The position numbers and the translations under genes are program-made. Source: Candidatus Omnitrophota bacterium (GTDB lineage Bacteria; Omnitrophota; Gorgyraeia; Zapsychrales; Aceulaceae). Taken from it: a stretch of DNA of 64,000 bases. Under the pieces are notes generated by a model. It saw only the letters and a program-made list of their open reading frames with translations, did no database searches and was not told the DNA's origin. The DNA is taken from positions 11,479 through 75,478 of the forward strand of contig JAKQPK010000023.1 in the NCBI GenBank assembly GCA_029564765.1, read 5' to 3'. Position 1 is the first letter of the stretch. Every line of letters begins with the position of its first letter. Shown piece after piece: positions 2,984-27,054 of this stretch.

Positions 2984-3703
2984 TCAAAACGTAATCCATT
3001 CTTTCCTATGATTAACATTCATCCTTATAAGGTTGATTCTTTTGCCAAACAAGTTTTTCATCTGATCAAAAATTCCAGCGTCTATATTACATCCACAATA
3101 TACTTTTTTAATGCCACAATCTAAGTGGTAATGCTCCTTTTTCTGAATGACCCTAAATTCCTTTTCATATTTCCAATGAGCTAATTTTGTCGTTAAGGCA
3201 ATTAGAGATTGTTCGTTAGCTATTTTAGATTTAGGGCCATGAATTATTTCCGGCAAATCTTCTTTATAATCAACTTGAAATATTCGTCTTTTAGTATCCT
3301 TTGGAATTCGATGACGTTCTCTTCCCGGAGGTGTTTTTACCATCAGAACATCGTCATCAGGCACCTCTATTTCAATGGCTATTCCGGCACAGCTATCCGC
3401 ATAATGCGCCCAGAGAAGAACGTCATCATTTTTCTCTGAAAGGCAACAGATCCTCTTGTTTTTCACAAGAGTATTTATTTTCTCAGCCTTTGGATCTGAA
3501 CTTGAAGAACTTTCATATTCACCACGGACCAAAGACCCTGCTGGTGACTTCTCTCTTTTAATACCCGTCAGATATCTCAAGCTAAACATCCCCTCAAAAG
3601 GATCGTTTAACTTATCGATGCTTGCGCAATAAAGCCGCTTATTCAACAAAATATCGTACACGTGACCAAGATTACTTAAAGACTTATATTTATATAGTTT
3701 CAT
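2984..3703 (-). CDS. DUF2971 family protein
   Basis: 239 aa; signature elements of DUF2971: N-terminal LYKYKSL, LNDPFEG, ICCLSE...LLWAHYADSCAGIAIEI and C-terminal HWKYEKEFRV (EkEwR-like). Lies in an AT-rich stretch. Confidence 0.6.
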   Translation of the reverse strand: MKLYKYKSLSNLGHVYDILLNKRLYCASIDKLNDPFEGMFSLRYLTGIKREKSPAGSLVRGEYESSSSSDPKAEKINTLVKNKRICCLSEKNDDVLLWAHYADSCAGIAIEIEVPDDDVLMVKTPPGRERHRIPKDTKRRIFQVDYKEDLPEIIHGPKSKIANEQSLIALTTKLAHWKYEKEFRVIQKKEHYHLDCGIKKVYCGCNIDAGIFDQMKNLFGKRINLIRMNVNHRKEWITF

Positions 3704-3745
3704 TTTGTTGTGCCGGGTTGGAATCTAAAAACTCTAAACAACGCT

Positions 3746-5023
3746 CTACTGCCCTAGCAAGGTATTTTCTTCTTCATCCCAGGGACGTTCAGAAGTAGTT
3801 TCGTATTGGTCATGGGATTTGGGGTTGATATATCCGTTGCAAGTCTTATCATTGACTCTGATTTTTTTCTTAATCCATCCCAAGCGCATCATGCAGTCAG
3901 CAACGCGCCTCTGCCTGCCACGGTCGAAGTCAGAGGAGAAACCCTTCAAGCATTCTGTCCAAATATCAATGCTTCTTACCTTGGCCTTGCCGATAAGATA
4001 TTTCTCGATGGAGTCCTTCCAGCTATCAAAGGCATCAGGAGGACCTTGCACGTCTTCGGCATGCGAAAAAAGATATTCCAGAGCGATATTCCATTGCTTC
4101 TGTGTAGGATAATGGCTTAAAACAATCCCGCTGTTCAAAGCGCATTTTTGAATATTAATATATTTGATCAGCTTGTTATTTTTTATTGTTATTTGAGAAT
4201 CATTAATCACTAGAACCGATGTGTTTTTATCTTGCCTAAGTAATTTTACGATGCCAAAGGTATTGACAGCATTGACAGTATCCTCATCGCTCTGAAGACT
4301 TTCAGTTTTACATGAAGAAGGCAGAACATCTTCAGCATTTAAAAAAAGATGTTCAAGGGCACGATGCCATTCACCTTGCTCTGGAGAATGGCTCAGAACA
4401 ATCCCCTTGTTCAAAGCAGACTTCTGGATATTGCTGTATTTCATTATCTTATTATTTCTTATCTCAATTTCATGGCCATTTATTATCAAAATAGAAGTAT
4501 TATTACTTTTCTTCATGAGCTTTGTGATACCGAAGGTATTCACGTCAGCTTCTTCATCCTGAACAATATAAGATGCATCACCGGAAACTTTGACAGGAAT
4601 ATCTGTGATCCTGGAAAGCGAACCATCAGCATTATATCTAAAAAACTTTATTTCGGTCTCAGAAACAACAACGCCAAACAAAGCTCTCGCTACTGCAAGA
4701 TAGGAAACAAGTTGATGCTCAGTGTCCTTGTCCGCTTTTATCTTAATTTCAGCAATGATCAAGGGGGTTCTTTTATCGCTTAAAACTACGATGTCCGCGC
4801 GTTTCTTAGTGATGCCGATCTGGATAGGGTATTCTGTGATAACGGAAATAGGATCATAATTGTAATGCAAAACAAGCTTAACAAGAAACAACTGTCTCAC
4901 TACTTCCTCCGGCGTAGCCACTCGCTCGCTGGTGAAGTATTTGCTACAAATACTGCAAGCTCCTGAACCTTTTTCCGTTATAAGAATTCTGGACAAAAGG
5001 TCTGGTCGCATTGACCAAATCAT
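3746..5023 (-). CDS. HsdR-N-like PD-(D/E)xK nuclease-fold protein with two internal ~92-aa tandem repeats and a VirE/primase-C-like C-terminal tail
   Basis: 425 aa. The N-terminus (EYPIQIG...RADIVVL...PLIIAEIK) matches the type I restriction enzyme R-protein N-terminal (PD-D/ExK) domain pattern D...(E)xK. Residues ~156-233 and ~246-325 are two copies of the same unit (VNTFGI.KL....NTS.L.IN...I.I.NNK..KY.NIQK.ALN.GIVLSH.P.Q..W..ALE.LF..AEDV). The C-terminal RRVADCMMRLGWIKKKIRVNDKTCNGY resembles VapE/P4-primase C-terminal segments. AT-rich; SD aaggag upstream. Confidence 0.5.
   Translation of the reverse strand: MIWSMRPDLLSRILITEKGSGACSICSKYFTSERVATPEEVVRQLFLVKLVLHYNYDPISVITEYPIQIGITKKRADIVVLSDKRTPLIIAEIKIKADKDTEHQLVSYLAVARALFGVVVSETEIKFFRYNADGSLSRITDIPVKVSGDASYIVQDEEADVNTFGITKLMKKSNNTSILIINGHEIEIRNNKIMKYSNIQKSALNKGIVLSHSPEQGEWHRALEHLFLNAEDVLPSSCKTESLQSDEDTVNAVNTFGIVKLLRQDKNTSVLVINDSQITIKNNKLIKYINIQKCALNSGIVLSHYPTQKQWNIALEYLFSHAEDVQGPPDAFDSWKDSIEKYLIGKAKVRSIDIWTECLKGFSSDFDRGRQRRVADCMMRLGWIKKKIRVNDKTCNGYINPKSHDQYETTSERPWDEEENTLLGQ
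4049..4558 (-). repeat. in-frame ~276-nt tandem duplication inside the 3746..5023 CDS (two protein repeat units)
   Basis: Two collinear DNA segments (~4049-4288 and ~4325-4558) encode the two 80-92-aa repeat units; aligned stretches are visible at nucleotide level (e.g. ...aacaatcccgctgttcaaagcgcatttttgaatatt... vs ...aacaatccccttgttcaaagcagacttctggatatt...). Confidence 0.7.
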
Positions 5024-5052
5024 AAGACATATCTCCTTTTAATTTAATAAGA

Positions 5053-5070
5053 AACCCCTAAAACCTTTCT
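5053..5070 (-). promoter_or_regulatory. conserved upstream motif copy A (AGAAAGGTTTTAGGGGTT), 30 nt upstream of the 3746..5023 CDS start
   Basis: Gene-sense reading: ggcAGAAAGGTTTTAGGGGTTtcttattaaattaaaaGGAGATATgtcATG. Confidence 0.5.
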
Positions 5071-5072
5071 GC

Positions 5073-6044
5073 CTAAATCAACAAGTTCAAAATAACTTTG
5101 ATCAACAATTCTTTTTCTTCCGGCTTGCTCGCGGCAACCATAAGGGTCAAGGCGACCAACGCGTTGTCATCAATTCGCTTACTGCCGTCTTTGCGTAGAA
5201 GAATACCGTTTTTCTGCAAGAAACAGATAAAAAGTGCCGCCGCGATACGCTTGTTACCGTCAACAAAACTGTGGTTTTTTATAACGAAATACAATAAATG
5301 CGTAGCTTTTTCTTCGACCGTCGGATAAAGATCCTTTCCTCCAAACGTTTGATGGATAGCGTTGATGGAGCTTTGAAAACTCTTGTCCTTTTCCCGGCCA
5401 AAAAGCGGAAATTCCTTGAGCTGCTGTTTCATGGCCTGGATGATATTTTGAGCATGTTCATAAGTAAAAGCGAACCGAACTTGCCTTGTTCCCTTAGGGG
5501 AAGAAACCTTTTGATGATCGTAACCATCTAAAATATCAAGCGCGCGGCCATATTCTGCAATGACCTTGATCAACCCCTTAGTCTCATCGGATAGGCTATC
5601 AAGCTGGATGACGTTGCCTAAAAGCTTAATAGACCGCTGCAGTTCGAGATATTTATGTTCGGCAGTTTTCAACCGCTTTTCATTGATCGTATAGCCATCG
5701 ACCAAATGCTTCTTGAGCACCTTTGTGGCCCAGATACGGAAGCGGGTTCCATTCTTTGATTTGACACGGTATCCAACTGAGATAATGACATCGAGATTAT
5801 AGAAATTGGCTTCATAGGATTTCCCGTCAGAAGCAGTTATCCGGAATTTCCGGATAACTGCCTTTTTCGATAATTCTTGTTCCTTAAAAATATTCTGGAT
5901 GTGCTCATTGACAGTTCGCATGTTTCTACTAAATAACACAGCCATCTGTTTTTGGGTAAGCCAGACAGTCTCTTTTTCAAGATGAACTTTCAGGTCTTTG
6001 CCATACAAAACAACTTGACCCTTTGAAGCTTCATTGTTGATCAT
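5073..6044 (-). CDS. RhuM-family N-terminal domain fused to Fic/Doc-family domain (Doc-type motif)
   Basis: The table ORF runs to 6137, but the start is taken as ATG 6044 (MINNEASKGQVVLYGKDLKVHLEKETVWLTQKQMAVLF, a typical RhuM N-terminus) with a GGAG-type SD upstream. The C-terminal half carries HSFVDGNKRIAAALF, matching the Fic/Doc core HxFx(D/N)GNKR. Confidence 0.62.
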   Translation of the reverse strand: MINNEASKGQVVLYGKDLKVHLEKETVWLTQKQMAVLFSRNMRTVNEHIQNIFKEQELSKKAVIRKFRITASDGKSYEANFYNLDVIISVGYRVKSKNGTRFRIWATKVLKKHLVDGYTINEKRLKTAEHKYLELQRSIKLLGNVIQLDSLSDETKGLIKVIAEYGRALDILDGYDHQKVSSPKGTRQVRFAFTYEHAQNIIQAMKQQLKEFPLFGREKDKSFQSSINAIHQTFGGKDLYPTVEEKATHLLYFVIKNHSFVDGNKRIAAALFICFLQKNGILLRKDGSKRIDDNALVALTLMVAASKPEEKELLIKVILNLLI

Positions 6045-6060
6045 GTCAATATCTCCCCTC

Positions 6061-6079
6061 AACCCCCAAAAACCTTTCT
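6061..6079 (-). promoter_or_regulatory. conserved upstream motif copy B (AGAAAGGTTTTTGGGGGTT), 17 nt upstream of the RhuM-Doc start
   Basis: Gene-sense reading: gggAGAAAGGTTTTTGGGGGTTgaggGGAGATATtgacATG. Shares both the motif and the GGAGATAT SD-like block with copy A. Confidence 0.5.
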
Positions 6080-6081
6080 CC

Positions 6082-6525
6082 CTACCCTCTACTCTCCAAG
6101 ATGAAAGTGACGGGCCCGTCGTTAATGAGTGCCACATCCATCATGGCGCGGAATTGGCCGGTTTGAACCTTTTGGCCAGCGCTTTTAAGCGCATCGACAA
6201 ACGCGTTATAAAATTCTTCACCTTTTTGCGGATCCGCGGCCGCATCAAAAGAAGGGCGCCTGCCTTTTTCGCAGGCGCCCAAAAGTGTAAATTGCGAAAC
6301 GACCAAAAATTCCCCGCCGACTTCGGTAATAGAACAATTCATCTTGCCCTGAGCATCTTCAAAAATGCGAAGTTCAATAAGCTTTCTGACAAGATAGTTG
6401 ATATCATCTGCTGTGTCTTCTTTGGCAACGGCTAAAAAAACCAATAACCCTTTGCCGATACGGCCCACCACCTGGCCGCCCACCGTGACACTCGCCTCTT
6501 TGACCCTTTGCAAAACGATACGCAT
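6082..6525 (-). CDS. dtd: D-aminoacyl-tRNA deacylase
   Basis: 147 aa; MRIVLQRV start, SQFTL and NDGPVTF motifs characteristic of Dtd. Confidence 0.85.
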   Translation of the reverse strand: MRIVLQRVKEASVTVGGQVVGRIGKGLLVFLAVAKEDTADDINYLVRKLIELRIFEDAQGKMNCSITEVGGEFLVVSQFTLLGACEKGRRPSFDAAADPQKGEEFYNAFVDALKSAGQKVQTGQFRAMMDVALINDGPVTFILESRG

Positions 6526-6951
6526 AAATATTATTCCTTATATTTTTATTAAATGATTATAGGGTACTTACCCTTTCAGGTCAACACTGGCAAGGGAAGC
6601 GAGAAAATTGATAAAAATCAATGTATCCTCTTTGCGTAAGGCGTGCTGTCATTATCCCTCGCTCAAACATCCTTCGCTCGCCTGTCTTTTCCAAACAGCT
6701 GCGGAATACAGGCGGCTAAGGAAACTCGCGAACGGACAACGCCAGCACGCTCTCTGACCAGGGTAAGCGAAAAAAGATTATCTTTTTGAAGCAGGACGTT
6801 GTTGAGGTTTCACTGCTGGCGATAAAGTGAAACCGAAAAGTCGAGTAAATTTTTCACGCTGGGGAAAATTTACATTCCTGAGAAGAAAAGATAATCTTTT
6901 AAGACCCCGCGTCGTCCCGCCTAAGTGGGACTCCTGGGACAAATTCGCACG

Positions 6952-6990
6952 CTTAAGTTATGTCACCCAGAGAGGTATCCGTAACTTAAG
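6952..6990 (+). promoter_or_regulatory. 11-bp-stem inverted repeat upstream of the Hel308-like gene
   Basis: CTTAAGTTATG-N17-CGTAACTTAAG (one G-U pair), ~45 nt upstream of the ATG. A TTGACA-N17-TACAAG promoter-like sequence follows at ~7001-7029. Confidence 0.35.
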
Positions 6991-7035: not shown

Positions 7036-9228
7036 ATGTCCGATGTCCGCAAAACCTTACTGGAATACCAATTCCCCGAAAGCGTTATCGATGCCGTCAC
7101 TTCCAATGGCATAAAGAAATTCTATCCACCGCAGGCGCAAGCCATCAAGCACGGCGCCTTAGATGGCAAAAGCCTTCTTTTAGCAATTCCCACAGCTGCT
7201 GGAAAGACGTTTGTCGCTGAGCTATGCATGATCAAGTCCATCATCCAAAACGGCGGACGATGTCTTTATATTGCACCCTTAAAAGCTCTAGCGAGCGAGA
7301 AGTTTAACGATTTTCAGAAAAAATATGAGCCTTTAGGAATCCATGTCGGCATTGCAACAGGCGATCTGGATAGCCCCAGCAAAAGCTTGAATCGTTATCA
7401 AATATTGATCGCCACCGCCGAGAAAGTGGACGCGCTATTGCGTTCCCGCGCTAAATGGCTTATTGATAATCTTTCGGTTGTGGTCTTAGATGAAATTCAT
7501 TTCATCAACGATGAATCCCGCGGTCCAACGCTTGAAATTCTCACCGCGCGCATCAAACAGCTGAATCCTAACGTTCAGCTTCTTGCGCTGAGCGCTACGG
7601 TCAAGAACGCCAGCGAAATGGCGCAGTGGCTGAAGGCAGAATTCGTGGAAAGCACCTGGCGGCCCGTGCCGCTACGCGAAGGGGTTTATTTTAACGAAGA
7701 AATTGTTTTTGACGGGTTTGGCAGGAAGGCTATTCACGAAGACGAATTTCCAGATGACTTGACCAAACTGACGCTGGATACTTTGCGCGGCAAAGGACAA
7801 GTGTTGGTGTTTGTCAACAGCCGCCGCTCGGCGCAAGCCTCCGCGTTATTGCTTGCAAGCCCGGTGTCGGAGCTTCTCAAACCTAGCGAAAAAGAATTGC
7901 TCAAGGAGCTTTCACAACAAGTCGTCAAAGGAAGCGGTGAAGCGACAAAGATTTGCCGCAAGCTCTCTAATGTCTTAGAACACGGCGTTGCTTTTCACCA
8001 CGCGGGGCTTCGGCCAGAACAACGCAAGATCATTGAAGACGCGTTCCGTCAAAATTTGGTCCGTGTCATCTGCTCTACGCCAACGCTCGCGGCCGGAGTG
8101 AACCTCCCTGCCCAGCGCACTATCTTGCGCGACACCAAACGCTACGAATCAGGGCTTGGCGCCGCTTACATTCCGGTTTCCGAATACAAGCAATGTGCCG
8201 GACGTGCCGGACGGCCCGGCTACGATGATTTTGGTGAAGCGGTCATCATCGCGAAAACCTTTGCCGAGTCGCGGCTTCTCTTTGAACGCTACATTGAAGC
8301 CGCCCCTGAGCCTGTCATTTCTAAATTAGGAAGCGAATCGGCCTTGCGCATCCACATCTTGGCTTCTATTGCCGCCGGACACGTGCACGATATCAATGAG
8401 ATGTTTGAATTCATCTCGCATACATTTTTAGCCCACCAAAAACTCACGGGCAACTTGATCGAGCTTATCAGCAAGATCTTTGATTTCTTGGAAAAACACG
8501 GACTTATTGAAAAAAGCGGATTTCGGTATTTCGCAACAGCCTTTGGTCAATGTGTAAGCCGCCTGTACATTGACCCCATCACAGGCATTATGCTCCATCA
8601 AGGCCTCGCGAAAGCCCATCGGACCGGCGGATATTCGGCAACAGGATTATTACACCTTGTTGCCTGCTGCCCTGACGCGGAAAGGCTTGCGAGCATCACA
8701 AAATCTGACTATGAACAACTGGAAGGATTTATGTCTTCTTGTGGGGATGAATTTATCGTGACAGCGCAGGATTTTCCTGATCTGGAGGATTTCTTTTTTC
8801 AATTGCGTGTTCTAAAAACAACGCTTCTCTGGTCGCAATGGATCGATGAAACAAAAGAAGATGATCTCTGTGATCGTTTTAATGTCGGGCCAGGCGATAT
8901 TCACCGTCATGTAGAATCCGCGCAGTGGATCCTCTATGCAGCCTCCGTTATCGCTGAACTTTTTAAATTTAAACGCCTCACCTTCGCGACCGATGACCTC
9001 AAACGCCGCATCCAATACGGTATTCGCGAAGAACTCCTCGATCTTGTCCTCTTAAAAGGCGTAGGACGCATTCGCGCGCGCAATCTTTTCTCCAAAGGAT
9101 TTAAAAAGCTTTCTGATCTTCGCCTGGCACCCCTCGATGATATCGCCAGTGTCCCGCAGATCGGCAAGGCTCTTGCCAAGGATATCCTCAATCAAATTCA
9201 AAATTTCAAAGTCAAAAGTCAAAAATAA
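7036..9228 (+). CDS. Ski2/Hel308-family DEAD/DEAH-box DNA helicase
   Basis: 730 aa; Q-motif region (FYPPQAQAI), Walker A AIPTAAGKTFVAE, DEIH box (VVLDEIHFI), SAT, helicase C motifs (HHAGL, QCAGRAGRPG), and a C-terminal ratchet/HhH-like domain arrangement typical of Hel308. Confidence 0.8.
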   Translation: MSDVRKTLLEYQFPESVIDAVTSNGIKKFYPPQAQAIKHGALDGKSLLLAIPTAAGKTFVAELCMIKSIIQNGGRCLYIAPLKALASEKFNDFQKKYEPLGIHVGIATGDLDSPSKSLNRYQILIATAEKVDALLRSRAKWLIDNLSVVVLDEIHFINDESRGPTLEILTARIKQLNPNVQLLALSATVKNASEMAQWLKAEFVESTWRPVPLREGVYFNEEIVFDGFGRKAIHEDEFPDDLTKLTLDTLRGKGQVLVFVNSRRSAQASALLLASPVSELLKPSEKELLKELSQQVVKGSGEATKICRKLSNVLEHGVAFHHAGLRPEQRKIIEDAFRQNLVRVICSTPTLAAGVNLPAQRTILRDTKRYESGLGAAYIPVSEYKQCAGRAGRPGYDDFGEAVIIAKTFAESRLLFERYIEAAPEPVISKLGSESALRIHILASIAAGHVHDINEMFEFISHTFLAHQKLTGNLIELISKIFDFLEKHGLIEKSGFRYFATAFGQCVSRLYIDPITGIMLHQGLAKAHRTGGYSATGLLHLVACCPDAERLASITKSDYEQLEGFMSSCGDEFIVTAQDFPDLEDFFFQLRVLKTTLLWSQWIDETKEDDLCDRFNVGPGDIHRHVESAQWILYAASVIAELFKFKRLTFATDDLKRRIQYGIREELLDLVLLKGVGRIRARNLFSKGFKKLSDLRLAPLDDIASVPQIGKALAKDILNQIQNFKVKSQK

Positions 9229-13363: not shown

Positions 13364-14763
13364 TACTCTCCTCCTTTTTTATTAATAGAGATAATTCCCA
13401 ATTCTTTCAATTGCTTACTATCAACTTCCGCCGGGGCTTCTGTCAACAGACAACTTCCTTTTTGTGTCTTAGGAAAAGCGATCACATCACGGATCGAATC
13501 AAGGCCCAAAAGGATCGCGACTAATCGATCAATACCATACGCCACGCCGGCATGCGGTGGAGCCCCATAGCGAAAGGCCTTGAGCAAGAAACCAAAACGC
13601 TTCTCCGCCTCCGCTTCATCAAAACCTATTATATCAAATATTTTCTTCTGTACATCTTGTTTGTGAATACGTATCGATCCGCTACCGATCTCGCTGCCGT
13701 TTAAAACCAGATCATAAGACCTGGAACGGATCTTATCGAACTGTCCGCTTTCCAACAACGGTATATCCTCCTGACAAAATGACGTAAAAGGATGATGCTC
13801 GCTTTCCCAGCGCTTTTCTTCTTCATTATATTTAAAGAGCGGGAAATCCACAACCCAAAGAAAAGAAAATTCCTCGCCTTGCTTGCGGGTGTCAGGTTTG
13901 TCGCTTTTGTATTGGGCCATGGCTTGCGCGTGCGTCATGCGCGGGAACGGGATCGCGATATCAACGCCCTTCACCTCTTTCATGATCTTTTGAAAAAGCC
14001 GTTCGGTCAAGCTAAACACATCTTCCTCTGTCACGAACGACATCTCCATATCCAGTTGCGTAAATTCTGGCTGACGGTCCGCGCGCAGATCCTCGTCGCG
14101 AAAACATTTCACGATCTGGTAATATCGATCAAGGCCGGAAACCATCAAGATCTGCTTGAACAATTGCGGTGATTGCGGAAGCGCGAAGAAAGTTCCTGGA
14201 TTAAGCCGCGAAGGCACTAAAAAATCCCGCGCGCCTTCCGGTGTGGACTTGGTCAGGACAGGCGTTTCAACTTCTGTGAACTGCTCGGCGTTCAGAAATT
14301 GACGAATGCACGAACAGATCTGATGGCGAACTCGTAAGGCCTGCATGACCTTTTGCTTGCGCAGGTCCAGATAGCGGTACGCCAGGCGAAGTTCTTCCGA
14401 CGGCTCAGCGGCATTATCATCGATCTCGAACACAGGCACTTCTGAAACGTTCAATATCTCAAGCGCGGTCGCGCACAACTCAATGTCGCCTGTTGCGACA
14501 TCCGGATTGACGTTCTTATCAGGGCGCACATTTACCTTACCGGTAATACGGACAACGAATTCCGGGCCGAGTTTTTGCGCTTCATCATGCGCTTGTTTAC
14601 TTACCGACGGAACAAAAACGACCTGCGTGATGCCATAGCGATCTCGAATATCAATGAAGATCAATTTTCCATGATCCCGGCGCTTGTGCACCCAACCGCA
14701 CAGCGTGACCTCTTGATCCTTAAATGTTTTGTTTAATTCCCCGCAGGTGTGTGTTCTTAGCAT
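13363..14763 (-). CDS. aspS: aspartate--tRNA ligase, bacterial-type class II motifs but lacking the GAD insertion domain
   Basis: Start taken at MLRTHTCGEL (14763), the canonical AspRS start. Motif 2 is FRDEDLRADRQPEFTQLD and motif 3 is GAPPHAGVAYGIDRL. The sequence goes from SDKPD almost directly to WVVDFPLF, so the ~130-aa GAD insertion of E. coli-type AspRS is absent. Confidence 0.85.
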   Translation of the reverse strand: MLRTHTCGELNKTFKDQEVTLCGWVHKRRDHGKLIFIDIRDRYGITQVVFVPSVSKQAHDEAQKLGPEFVVRITGKVNVRPDKNVNPDVATGDIELCATALEILNVSEVPVFEIDDNAAEPSEELRLAYRYLDLRKQKVMQALRVRHQICSCIRQFLNAEQFTEVETPVLTKSTPEGARDFLVPSRLNPGTFFALPQSPQLFKQILMVSGLDRYYQIVKCFRDEDLRADRQPEFTQLDMEMSFVTEEDVFSLTERLFQKIMKEVKGVDIAIPFPRMTHAQAMAQYKSDKPDTRKQGEEFSFLWVVDFPLFKYNEEEKRWESEHHPFTSFCQEDIPLLESGQFDKIRSRSYDLVLNGSEIGSGSIRIHKQDVQKKIFDIIGFDEAEAEKRFGFLLKAFRYGAPPHAGVAYGIDRLVAILLGLDSIRDVIAFPKTQKGSCLLTEAPAEVDSKQLKELGIISINKKGGE

Positions 14764-24315: not shown

Positions 24316-24439
24316 TTAAATTGATTATAACAATACCCAACACCTTAAATTATTGTACTGATTGAATGAAAAAAATCCAGAGGAAAAATTAACTGAGGCC
24401 ATAACTTACGGAGCAACAGCGCTCGTAAGTTATCCAGCC

Positions 24440-24561
24440 GAACTTATTTCGAGCCAAAGGCGAGGAGCAAATGAGCGCCAAATTGTTCATGCGAACTTAT
24501 TTCGAGCCGAAGGCGAGAAGCAAATGTGCACCCAGATCCACTGGCGAGGAGCCAGTGAGCA
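24440..24561 (+). repeat. non-coding direct repeat, 53-bp period, two full ~39-bp copies plus a partial third
   Basis: gaacttatttcgagccaaaggcgaggagcaaatgagcgc (24440-24478) and gaacttatttcgagccgaaggcgagaagcaaatgtgcac (24493-24531), then gcgaggagccagtgagcac. Preceded by hairpin taacttacg-N13-cgtaagtta (24402-24432). Period is not a multiple of 3 and no ORF is maintained. Confidence 0.6.
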
Positions 24562-24626
24562 CACAAGTTGAAAAGAAAAGATTGGGACACTTCTATCAAA
24601 ACCCCTTATCCGCCAACGGTTTATTT

Positions 24627-24647
24627 AGAAACGTTCTAGGGTTTTTT
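24627..24647 (+). promoter_or_regulatory. conserved motif variant copy D (AGAAACGTTCTAGGGTTTTTT) inside the non-coding stretch
   Basis: Plus-strand copy, 19/21 identical to copy C. A weaker relative, gggggAGAAAGTTCTAAGC, sits at 24941-24960. Confidence 0.4.
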
Positions 24648-25082
24648 CCGCTAACCTTTTATTCACAAACAACGAACAACGGTAACAACGAAAATGTGCC
24701 AGGCACTTTTTAGTGTAAATCAGCTGATAGGCAGAAGGTTAAAGCTATTTCACCTTAACCCAGAAACGGAAATATTTAGCCTTTACAGGATAAATCGTCT
24801 TCCCATTCCTAATGATGTACCGGCAGAATACCAAGCGGCATCCCGGACGGTATTCACATTGTCCAGCCATATGCTGACCCTCCTTTCTAGCGAAGGTTTT
24901 CTCACCTCCAAGCCCATTTTGTAATTTTCAAAAAGGGGCTGGGGGAGAAAGTTCTAAGCTAAAATAGAAGATCATCAAAAGGACGACCCATCTGCCTATC
25001 AGCAATATTCAAAGAACTCCGAATTCCAGGGACACGTACAAAATTAATTAGGTACGTATCCCCTGACTCCTTGTAAGAATTT

Positions 25083-26339
25083 TTATCGAAAACTTGTTAT
25101 TTCATTAAATATTTCAATTGCAAAATTATCGGTCATTCCGGCAATGAAATCAATAACAGATTGTGTATAGCTTCCTTTGTCTGCCAAAACATACAATATT
25201 TCATTATTATATTTATTTCCTAAACTACGAAACTTTGGATACGACATTGGCCAGCTCCTAAGGTCCGACCGTCCCTTTATCCACGCCAAGAAATTTCTTT
25301 GCAATATTGGATAAACTTTTAGACTTTTTTTGATGCTCTCGTATGAATCTCTTTGCGCATAAGCCCTCATCAAAACCTCAAAAACTAACTCTATAACAAG
25401 CTTCGCATACTTTTTATACGCTTGCAATCTTTCGCTGCTATAGATATTTCTATAGTTGTACTCGGTCAAAGAAGTCATTACTTTTGAATACTTTTCTGTG
25501 AACCGTATGCCATTTTCTGGGCTGCTAGCTCTACATAAATCAATGATAAATCCATGCATTAAAGCTGTGTTGCTTATCTCGCGAATTTTTTCTTTTTTTC
25601 CAACTATATCATTAACTATGGCTTTTAATTCTTTGAGCTGCTGTTTCCTTAAAATATCTAACCGCACAGCATCTTCAATGTCTCTGCCTATATATGCAAT
25701 TCGATCGGATATCTTTACTACGCATCCCTCCCATGTAAAAGGAGTAAATAACCCTTTTTCTTGGATAGTCGCCAAATCTATTGCTTGTTCTCTTGGATAA
25801 ATCGTATTTCCTCTATCTTCCCCACAATGCAGCAAGATTCCGTCTCTCACTGCATAGGTTAACAATAAATTCTGGAAAACATCATTTTGATCAGGCAAAA
25901 TTTCAATTTGATCAGCAAATCGTAAACTATTTCGTTCATGCCAAAATTTAGCGCTCAATTTATCTTTAGTAATTTCCTCTAATACTTCTTCACCAGCATG
26001 ACCAAAAGGAGCGTGCCCAAGATCATGACCCAAAGCTATTGCATTAGTTAATTCAGTGTTTAAGCCAAGAAAATTAGCAATTGTATAACTGACAGCAACA
26101 ACATGATTAACATGCTCAATCCTGGTACAAATATGGTCGTTTTTTGTAGCAAAAAAAACTTGTGTTTTATGCTTTAATCTCCGAAAAGCCGTACAGTGAA
26201 GTATCCGATTATAATCTCGCGCAAATTCGCTTCTTATCTCTGGATCGCGTGAATACAATGAATGCTGTCGCTTAATAGCATTTTCCCATTTTCTATTTTT
26301 CTCATACATTCTGACAGAAAAAAATGAGTCTTTTCCCAT
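25083..26339 (-). CDS. dGTP triphosphohydrolase-family HD-domain protein, divergent second paralog
   Basis: 418 aa; motifs (RILHCTAFRRLKHKTQVF, HVNHVVAVS, GHDLGHAPFGHAGEEVLEE) are collinear with the canonical dgt-like gene at 43009..44214. Sits in an AT-rich segment. Has the conserved upstream motif and a GAGG SD. Confidence 0.72.
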   Translation of the reverse strand: MGKDSFFSVRMYEKNRKWENAIKRQHSLYSRDPEIRSEFARDYNRILHCTAFRRLKHKTQVFFATKNDHICTRIEHVNHVVAVSYTIANFLGLNTELTNAIALGHDLGHAPFGHAGEEVLEEITKDKLSAKFWHERNSLRFADQIEILPDQNDVFQNLLLTYAVRDGILLHCGEDRGNTIYPREQAIDLATIQEKGLFTPFTWEGCVVKISDRIAYIGRDIEDAVRLDILRKQQLKELKAIVNDIVGKKEKIREISNTALMHGFIIDLCRASSPENGIRFTEKYSKVMTSLTEYNYRNIYSSERLQAYKKYAKLVIELVFEVLMRAYAQRDSYESIKKSLKVYPILQRNFLAWIKGRSDLRSWPMSYPKFRSLGNKYNNEILYVLADKGSYTQSVIDFIAGMTDNFAIEIFNEITSFR

Positions 26340-26373: not shown

Positions 26374-26871
26374 TCAAAATCCAAGCTTACCCTTGGGCTT
26401 TTGCGGCTCTTCGAATAGATTTTTCAAAGCACTAAATACTACTTGAAATTGCTTGTCGTATTTCCTTTCCATCTCTTCGATTTTACGCCTGATATTAACA
26501 TTTGTTAAAGACATCCGGCGTAATTGGGTAAATGCGCGCATGATTTGAATGTTGACAGCGATCGCCCTATCGCTACTTAATACTCCCGAAAGCATCGCAA
26601 CGCCTTGCTCGGTAAAAGCTAAAGGCAAGTGGGGCGAAAATTTTAAGAATTTGAGGTGGTCGCAAATTGCGACCACCTCTTCTTTTTCTTTATTCGTTAA
26701 CTGGAACATAAAATCTTCCGGGAATCGTTTTTTGTTCCTTTTTACCTGCTCGTTGAGCCGTTTTGTTTGCACGCCATACAATAAAGCCAAATCGCTATCC
26801 ATCATGACTTTTTTGCCCCGAATGAAGAATATCTTGCTGGTGATAGCCTCAGCTGAAATTAAATTAGGCAT
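26374..26871 (-). CDS. ORF6N (KilA-N-related) domain protein
   Basis: 165 aa; IFFIRGKKVMMDSDLALLYGVQTKRLNEQVKRNKKRFPEDFMFQLT matches the ORF6N domain consensus. AT-rich. Confidence 0.62.
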   Translation of the reverse strand: MPNLISAEAITSKIFFIRGKKVMMDSDLALLYGVQTKRLNEQVKRNKKRFPEDFMFQLTNKEKEEVVAICDHLKFLKFSPHLPLAFTEQGVAMLSGVLSSDRAIAVNIQIMRAFTQLRRMSLTNVNIRRKIEEMERKYDKQFQVVFSALKNLFEEPQKPKGKLGF

Positions 26872-27054
26872 GACTGTTCTTCCTTCCCGCAGGATACGCT
26901 TCTGAGCTGAAAAAATAAGATTTCACGGATACATACACCGTTAGTCAGATATCTACTGCCAGACTTTTAGCTAATTTGATATATACCACTCACGTGTGTG
27001 GATGTCAAGAAATTTCCCCAGGTAGCCTCTAAATGTCTTGATCATTTATTGCTT

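Follow-up and report, generated by a model that had tools for sequence, protein, structure and literature searches.

How do single defence genes come to stand directly behind core genes of a bacterial chromosome? How such genes enter hot spots has been worked out for integrons, for prophages and for a small number of integrative islands, but not for most small islets. The question is raised here by a stretch of 64,000 nucleotides (nt) from a Candidatus Omnitrophota bacterium (contig JAKQPK010000023.1, positions 11,479 to 75,478; hereafter the window), the sequence of which recurs on long contigs from anaerobic-digester metagenomes. Two islands of AT-rich accessory genes in the window carry a short conserved motif of ~20 nt, termed M, at the junctions between their genes. 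The initial annotation regarded M as a shared cis-regulatory element uniting both islands in one regulon. Comparison of the 64-kb window with ~100 kb of related loci favors a different interpretation, which may well be correct but is put forward tentatively: M would be an att-like site at which the gene cassettes of a lineage-specific system recombine or are joined. The grounds are the location of M at junctions, its lineage specificity, the bipartite architecture of the full element, breakpoints of homology, one duplication that flanks an insert, and inverted copies that bracket genes. In this uncultured phylum, a short and recognizable junction sequence marks the defence islets.

Island 1 lies between core genes in the order dtd, copy B, a gene for a RhuM-Fic/Doc fusion, copy A, a gene for an HSDR_N_2-domain protein, copy E, a DUF2971 gene and tatD. 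In island 2, groEL is followed by a terminator, a promoter (P), an ORF6N-domain gene, copy C, a gene for a dGTPase-like HD phosphohydrolase, and a non-coding stretch of 767 nt that holds D' and D and precedes ppnP. Copy A, AGAAAGGTTTTAGGGGTTT (5070-5052, minus strand), is located 2 nt past the RhuM-Fic/Doc stop (5073-5075) and 28 nt before the HSDR_N_2 ATG (5023). Copy B, AGAAAGGTTTTTGGGGGTT (6079-6061, minus strand), similarly stands 2 nt past the dtd stop (6082-6084) and 16 nt before the RhuM-Fic/Doc ATG (6044). Copy C, TAGAAACGTTTTGGGGTTTTT (26373-26353, minus strand), abuts the ORF6N stop (26374-26376), 13 nt before the ATG of the dGTPase-like gene (26339), and copy D, TAGAAACGTTCTAGGGTTTTTT (24626-24647, plus strand), forms the 3' half of a bipartite element at 24585-24647. 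These four strong copies sit where they had been placed by the initial annotation, and its weak plus-strand copy, here D' (AGAAAGTTCTAAG, 24946-24958), fits the motif with a deletion of 1 nt, as GGGAGAAA-GTTCTAAG, when compared by eye with positions 3393-3414 of the related locus L144. A further degenerate copy, E, TAGAGCGTTGTTTAGAGTTTTT (3748-3727, minus strand), has the HSDR_N_2 stop as its TAG and ends 23 nt before the DUF2971 ATG (3703); it can be aligned to the other copies only with indels and scores under the matrix threshold. The consensus of M is TAGAAACGTTYTRGGGKTTT, with AGAAAGGTTTTNGGGG as the variant in A and B. Copies B, A, E and C start 0-2 nt past the upstream stop on the same strand, and M usually begins 0-3 nt past the preceding stop among the copies of the clade. 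The block that was said to be shared by A and B, GGAGATAT, is present, and is the Shine-Dalgarno region.

When up to 3 mismatches to a degenerate consensus were allowed, the 64 kb yielded 4 matches where 0.71 would be expected; the consensus came from those same copies, which makes this test circular. In a non-circular test, a matrix built from 13 copies of other genomes only was scanned over the window. Scores of 33.5, 31.2, 25.2 and 15.5 bits were obtained for C, D, A and B, respectively, compared to a best score of 21.4 bits over 100 Markov-simulated windows and 15.1 bits for the best unrelated site of the window, at 13605. Thus A, C and D stand above all simulations, but B, which has a length difference of 1 nt, lies inside the simulated range and is not separable from background by the matrix alone. 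The grounds for accepting copy B are its homology to A and to the copies found at this position in L144 (1763-1790) and in a second related locus, L194 (~1324-1350). For A, C and D, chance or base composition as the source of M was ruled out by the out-of-window matrix and the simulations; for all copies, B among them, it was ruled out by recurrence in other genomes. A generic effect of ribosome-binding sites was also rejected. AGAAAGG is complementary to the typical 3' tail of 16S rRNA, but the core genes carry a plain AAGGAGG without the motif, and the commoner variant of M is AGAAACG.

A metagenome scan for this commoner variant returned 36 loci, 7 of them from related organisms, as judged by matching guanine-plus-cytosine (GC) content, synteny or shared non-coding modules. 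The window's own contigs were not among the loci returned, and L148 was left out of the clade, its surrounding sequence looking unrelated. In all 7 loci M is intergenic and at a junction, and in 6 an accessory gene adjoins it. M stands beside a HEPN-like gene in L150, a Schlafen/AlbA_2 gene at the groEL-ppnP hot spot in L168, a Dam methyltransferase with further restriction-modification-type genes in L159, Fic/Doc and then a 144-amino-acid gene in L172, an HNH endonuclease gene after a DnaJ C-terminal-domain gene in L167, and a NUMOD/DUF4379 gene after thi4 in L183; in L165 it is found at the 3' end of trmO. Copy C matches L150 3422-3452 over 32 nt. L144 encodes a RhuM-Doc protein with 88% amino acid identity and keeps synteny with the window (dtd, RhuM-Doc, ..., tatD). 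It has four M copies, all on the same strand as the genes. One corresponds to B and is degenerate, one abuts the RhuM-Doc stop 26 nt before an unrelated 150-amino-acid gene, and two are upstream of a 294-amino-acid gene. It can be seen that M ties the two islands together, as had been claimed, and also links them to equivalent islands in relatives; the claim of a regulon is weakened by the variable position and the inverted and decayed copies.

Wider collections were searched with an exact degenerate pattern of 32 bits. Viral contigs gave 15 scattered matches, and contigs of a collection with one genome per species gave at least 118. The matches come from all phyla, one per locus, and most are within long open reading frames (ORFs), as chance predicts for a 32-bit pattern; among the genome-collection matches listed only L086, on the same contig as L144, is relevant. 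The chance matches include two sets of conserved non-coding sites (at L027, L047, L052, L124, L130 and L138, and also at L032, L039, L068 and L076) that contain the pattern and are unrelated to the M element, namely a palindromic repeat in several metagenome-assembled genomes of Thermodesulfobacteriota and a conserved intergenic sequence in Nocardia. A phage origin was rejected on these 15 scattered viral matches for M and on 2 for the bipartite pattern, both within coding sequence; essentially no viral relatives of the three proteins were found in the viral collection. M is absent at the closest homologues of the dGTPase-like gene, with 59-61% identity in other phyla, where ORF6N is also absent upstream, and at the RhuM-Doc gene of Ca. 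Aceula lacicola (76% identity). The possibility that M came in with either of these two genes from donors outside the lineage was rejected on the same ground, that homologues elsewhere lack it. Since these homologues are without M, it appears to have been added to the genes within this lineage. M is specific to one clade of Omnitrophota.

The full element has ~62 nt and consists of Box1 (GGGACACTTCT..), a variable spacer of 27 nt, and then M. Box1 precedes 7 copies, and the distance from the Box1 14-mer to M is 27 nt in 6 of these and 26 nt in the seventh; the sequence of the spacer varies while its length holds. In the window, the full element is inverted at the far end of the dGTPase segment (24585-24647, plus strand), with Box1 GGACACTTCTATCA at 24585-24598, the 27-nt spacer and copy D, and ~61 nt of it are homologous to L150 2113-2173 and L165 2559-2618. 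In forward copies, Box1 runs on into a small hairpin, CACTTCT-N3-5-GGAAGTG. Full elements tend toward the outer edges of the islets and M-only copies lie between cassettes, where the upstream coding region takes the place of Box1. Box1 also seems to resemble, loosely, the hix/gix half-sites of Hin/Gin, and to resemble the SP6 promoter core; neither likeness is counted as evidence.

M is always directed 5' to 3' into the cassette or array, and copies at the far end are therefore inverted. Such inverted copies at gene 3' ends are D and those of L150 (2155), L165 and L168 (1440). Inward-pointing brackets are formed by full elements on both sides of the HEPN gene in L150, by two M copies, the first degenerate, around the Schlafen gene in L168, and by C and D around the dGTPase-like gene in the window. 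In these three genomes, inverted repeats of 20 nt enclose gene segments of 1.3-1.8 kb. Pairs such as C/D could accordingly be inversion sites (phase variation), at which an invertase would turn a defence gene away from its promoter, but same-species contigs from different samples (five loci, L001-L005) are identical and have C and D in the same orientation, direct-repeat arrays would be unexplained, and no invertase gene is nearby, so that this explanation is very improbable. Alternatively, Box1-N27-M could be the terminal inverted repeat of a non-autonomous transposable unit, similar to a mobile insertion cassette or a miniature inverted-repeat transposable element (MITE), bound by a transposase encoded elsewhere. 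Two conserved boxes at fixed spacing are typical of transposon ends, and a single HEPN gene between inverted full-length elements in L150, together with the inverted pairs of L168 and C/D, is in agreement with this. However, no target-site duplication was seen by eye around the inverted pair in L150, island 1 and L144 are direct M-only arrays without Box1 in which each copy abuts a stop codon, the direct duplication of ~45-67 nt in L194 (see below) is far above a transposon target duplication, and no related insertion sequence or transposase was seen in the loci examined. A transposon end is thus a rather improbable identity for the element.

Among the grounds for interpreting M as a recombination site are the points at which homology between loci begins and ends. 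The 83% nucleotide homology between the window and L144 begins a little upstream of B and stops exactly at 5052, where A has its 3' end; past this point the two loci carry different genes. L168 is syntenic at groEL...ppnP, yet a Schlafen-like gene is found there. The dtd locus was compared across relatives via Dtd orthologues. In L190-193 (Dtd 84%), dtd is followed by a gene for a 161-amino-acid membrane protein and tatD, with only a diverged M-like spacer, and this arrangement is probably the ancestral state. Other genes lie downstream of dtd in L186-189, with a weak M-like site. In L195 the order is dtd, a 57-amino-acid ORF, a RhuM remnant, a 157-amino-acid gene (the counterpart of the 161-amino-acid gene of L190) and tatD. 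In L194 (Dtd 93%), dtd is followed by a first copy of M (M1), the 57-amino-acid ORF, a second copy of the 3'-terminal ~45 nt of dtd, a second copy of M (M2) and RhuM-Doc. The two dtd ends of L194 share 88% identity over 42 nt, and each can be aligned to window positions 6126-6060; therefore, a cassette of ~300 nt is flanked by a direct duplication of the dtd 3' end plus M, which would be the signature expected of integration at this place. Additionally, L144 has kept a 49-nt leader remnant of the 57-amino-acid cassette of L194 at another array position, where homology stops at TAGAAA. Thus, in three independent comparisons, the breakpoints are within or at M.

Copies of M at the same position are poorly preserved. 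Those at the B position in L144 and L194 have decayed through indels though their RhuM-Doc genes are 77-83% identical, the window copies E and D' are likewise degenerate, and in L195 M1 has been lost and the 57-amino-acid ORF kept. This pattern of decay fits a mobile-element-derived sequence and not an expression signal under purifying selection. Decay could also be expected if M were a functionless relic, with spacers alike by descent from one ancestral intergenic region and spread by homologous or illegitimate recombination. The degenerate copies, the diverged M-like sequence after dtd in the near-empty L190 locus, and the lack of an identified enzyme among the neighbours examined speak for such a relic. 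The 20-nt core, however, is identical at 19-20 of 20 positions beside unrelated genes of different species (C, L144 2773 and L150 3451), where the surroundings are unalignable; moreover, the Box1-to-M spacing is kept despite the variable spacer and the inward orientation is consistent at both cassette ends. A passive origin is consequently given a low probability.

The remaining explanation is that of the initial annotation, in which M would act as an operator, as a promoter element for an alternative sigma factor, or as an RNA signal of the 5' untranslated or intercistronic region, and would travel with the cassettes as needed for their expression. Part of this claim stands, since the motif is non-random and confined to acquired AT-rich genes. 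No copy precedes a core gene of the window in pattern and matrix scans, as had been stated; 13 of ~17 in-clade copies are oriented as the next gene; many are 13-30 nt before an ATG and directly upstream of the ribosome-binding site; and M is found together with a portable promoter that, by its sequence, appears to be clearly functional. The regulatory part is weakened by several observations. The distance from M to promoter or start ranges from ~4 to ~150 nt; M is inside operons at A, B, C and E, and in L159 it lies ~90 nt upstream of the cassette's own promoter P. Neither a fixed position relative to promoter or start nor conservation of same-position copies in relatives, as would characterize a regulon, was found. 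Four copies are inverted at gene 3' ends, and same-position copies decay, up to the deletion in L195, although the downstream gene is retained. No promoter was found at M in the promoter scan, and identity as a promoter was rejected, M having, by inspection, no correctly spaced sigma70, sigma54 or extracytoplasmic function (ECF) arrangement. The only dyad in 18 aligned copies, again by inspection, is one of 4 bp (TAGA..TCTA), which is limited to copies with C at position 10 and shifts register in the T variants; dyad register and central CG are both unconserved, which argues against a simple binding site of a protein dimer.

Folding of the motif regions as RNA showed no significant or conserved fold. 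RNA and DNA folds of M, with or without Box1, are at the level of shuffled sequences (z from +1.3 to -2.45, a terminator excepted); two folds surpass the shuffles, the RNA of L159 (z = -2.45) and, in L168, a hairpin of the ordinary terminator type (-5.69). For 4 full elements, the alifold consensus reaches -4.7 kcal/mol with only 2 compensatory pairs, which is no convincing covariation. Rfam searches at gathering thresholds found nothing but tRNA-Gly in the window, and nothing relevant by E-value in island 2 and six related loci. An RNA structure, riboswitch or thermometer was therefore rejected, for want of a significant fold and an Rfam match. An intrinsic terminator was also rejected: M ends in a T run and pairs weakly with AAAACC of Box1 in D, one L150 element (L150a) and L165, but the energies are at shuffle level; the forward copies are without the AAAACC pairing arm. 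An expression signal as the primary identity of M is thus unlikely; if it were correct, M would be the first regulatory motif described for the phylum. Since most copies point at a nearby start codon, 13-30 nt before it, a secondary role of M in expression is possible.

Among known systems, integrons, dif modules and mobile insertion cassettes come closest to the arrangement. Integron cassettes with attC sites, particularly those of chromosomal integrons, stock anti-phage genes (10.1101/2024.07.02.601686; PMC12614218). The attC site is an imperfect palindrome that folds as single-stranded DNA and has paired R/L boxes, AAC...GTT and extrahelical bases (PMC12614218). The M islets likewise are arrays of small genes in one orientation, often promoterless and including many defence genes. 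Consecutive cassettes are separated by a short conserved site that extends from the stop codon, or from just beside it, almost to the following start codon, and AAC/GTT is central to the site in M as in attC. In island 1, sites alternate with genes of one orientation from dtd to DUF2971, and L144 and L194 carry other cassettes there. In contrast to integrons, neither intI, attI nor Pc was found in the neighbourhoods examined; M has ~20 nt (62 nt in full) and no supported hairpin, stop-to-start spacers are 34-49 nt, and there is no consistent complementary partner box upstream. The core of M is GTTYTRG, unlike the core consensus of attC, GTTRRRY. Furthermore, there are several arrays of one to three genes at different core-gene hot spots instead of one array, and some M copies are inverted.

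A second comparison is offered by the dif modules of Acinetobacter plasmids, which are flanked by pdif (XerC/XerD) sites (PMC6449649; PMC13141974); a dif/pdif site has 28 bp, with two 11-bp arms, palindromic inner parts and a 6-bp central region (PMC6449649). Such modules are similarly small, with an accessory gene or two (toxin-antitoxin and Fic/Doc genes among them) and without a recombinase inside, and have short conserved boundary sites that occur in varied contexts. The boundary sites of dif modules are often inverted; for M, inverted pairs are found at C/D, L150 and L168, and direct copies in island 1, L144 and L194. M, however, has neither the 28-bp 11-6-11 architecture nor palindromic inner arms, and it is chromosomal, next to the 3' ends of core genes, with direct arrays common. 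Mobile insertion cassettes and MITEs carry passenger genes between inverted repeats of the insertion-sequence type. L150, L168 and C/D resemble them in having a passenger gene between inverted elements without a transposase inside; M differs in that no target-site duplication was seen (L150, inverted repeats of ~62 nt, by eye) and no parent insertion sequence is known, and in its internal direct copies without Box1. Some integrative elements insert at the 3' end of a gene, a copy of which is part of their attP, as in islands at tRNA genes. The duplication of the last ~45 nt of dtd plus M around the cassette of L194 is similar, but the insert is only ~300 nt and free of an integrase. M shares the logic of integrons, dif modules and mobile insertion cassettes, in that small modules of accessory genes, differing in content among relatives, are bounded by short conserved sites. 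Of the features that define these systems, no integrase near any locus, no attC-type palindrome, no 11-6-11 architecture and, by eye in L150, no target duplications were found. No paper linking Omnitrophota to integrons or to such a motif was found in the literature.

If M is a recombination site, recombination at the M element would insert single accessory genes, mostly candidate anti-phage or toxin genes, immediately behind core genes (dtd and groEL, for example), and would stack and swap them there. Integration would duplicate the site, with the result that every cassette would be bounded by M. M would abut the preceding stop, or its TAG could itself serve as that stop, and the ribosome-binding site and ATG of the incoming gene would lie 13-30 nt downstream of M. 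Cassettes would be expressed by read-through from an upstream promoter or from a portable promoter carried by some of them. From the above we infer a dedicated site-specific recombinase acting on the element, and the position of strand exchange. A bolder and more doubtful extension is that the Omnitrophota clade possesses an undescribed, integron-independent cassette system, with its own Box1-N27-M site and its own putative recombinase, which would reshuffle defence-gene arrays behind core genes (dtd, groEL, dsbD, thi4, dnaJ and others). A recombination site would define a new cassette system, provide a simple sequence tag to harvest defence genes from Omnitrophota metagenomes, and point to a recombinase still to be found.

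Several points weigh against recombination at M. No integrase, transposase or invertase was present among annotated neighbours within ~10 kb on either side in the window genome and 2-8 kb in the other loci, according to precomputed Pfam lists around both islands and the related loci and to Pfam scans of neighbouring genes. No target-site duplication was seen by eye around the inverted pair of L150 (..GGAGCG / element / TGAGAT..), and the contigs retrieved contained neither a circular intermediate nor an inverted variant, nor an empty site with one intact M. M is found in direct as well as inverted arrangements, a combination that a single simple mechanism does not predict. The duplication in L194 could in principle also have been made by illegitimate recombination, and most copies point at and adjoin a start codon, as an expression signal would also predict. 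The in-clade sample is small (~20 copies, ~10 genomes), and it is partly motif-selected, most loci outside the window having been found by scanning for M itself.

The cassette genes are all on the minus strand and have GC contents of 0.35-0.42, against 0.46-0.49 for the flanking core genes. In island 1 these are the RhuM-Fic/Doc fusion (5073..6044; GC 0.418; PADLOC candidate PDC-S23/PDC-S05), the HSDR_N_2-domain protein of 425 amino acids (3746..5023; GC 0.401) and DUF2971 (2984..3703; GC 0.362; PADLOC candidate PDC-S31). Island 2 has the ORF6N-domain protein (26374..26871; GC 0.408; PDC-S05) and the dGTPase-like HD phosphohydrolase (25083..26339; GC 0.352), the latter between the inward-pointing C and D. 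According to PADLOC, four island genes are candidate defence genes (PDC-S23/S05, PDC-S05, PDC-S31 and the dGTPase); the fifth, HSDR_N_2, matches type I methyltransferase models via its N-terminal domain only. The core gene dtd (6082..6525, minus strand), with its 3' end and copy B as the insertion point of island 1, has its own promoter at 6584-6556, which is the sole strong sigma70-type promoter of island 1 in the promoter scan. Promoter P, upstream of ORF6N (26980..27008, minus strand), is of the sigma70 type, TTGACA-17-TATATA, preceded by TGG. A stretch of 34-38 nt with P, 88-91% identical, also precedes cassettes at L159 312-349 and L172 940-977, and the three genes behind it are unrelated (ORF6N, a Dam methyltransferase and a Vsr-Dcm fusion). 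Promoter P is a second short module common to the islets.

Other small features accompany the islets. The stretch before ppnP, though termed non-coding, contains a 41-amino-acid ORF with a strong ribosome-binding site (24745-24870, minus strand), flanked by 16-nt inverted repeats at 24723-24738 and 24988-25003. Its product is one of a family of small, basic proteins, ~40-50 amino acids long (..FCRYIxRNGKRIYPxxAKxFRFWVK..), that has 57 cluster representatives at E<1e-3 and no match in Pfam or PADLOC. A REP-like (repetitive extragenic palindrome-like) repeat family of ~80 nt, with the hairpin TAACTTACGGAGC..GCTCGTAAGTTA followed by GCGAAYTTA..CGAAAGCGA, is tandem in the window at 24395-24560 and 6931-6961 and is present as inverted copies flanking the island in L144 (1660-1740 and 4433-4513). 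The same repeat is found right after dtd in L184 (8439-8510) and L144, and splits the RhuM remnant of L195 (~955-1015). In L144, a duplicate of the first ~56 nt of tatD (4517-4575) stands before a nucleotidyltransferase/HEPN pair (PDC-M05), which points to insertion of another kind on the side of the islet next to tatD. Between the 57-amino-acid ORF and the RhuM remnant of L195 lies GGTGCGCATAA (787-797), an apparent 11/11 match to the XerC-binding arm of E. coli dif; this likeness may be due to chance and is not counted as evidence. In L150, three tandem repeats of ~120 nt (3500-3900, minus strand) are located upstream of the Box1-M element, each with a terminator-like hairpin, a G9-G10 tract and a GTGCCTGGCAC hairpin; the last of these also occurs at window 24697-24715 and at L168 1400-1435. 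Finally, a Hel308-type ("archaeal helicase domain 4") DNA helicase gene (7036-9228, plus strand) is divergent from dtd, and its position is kept in all related loci.

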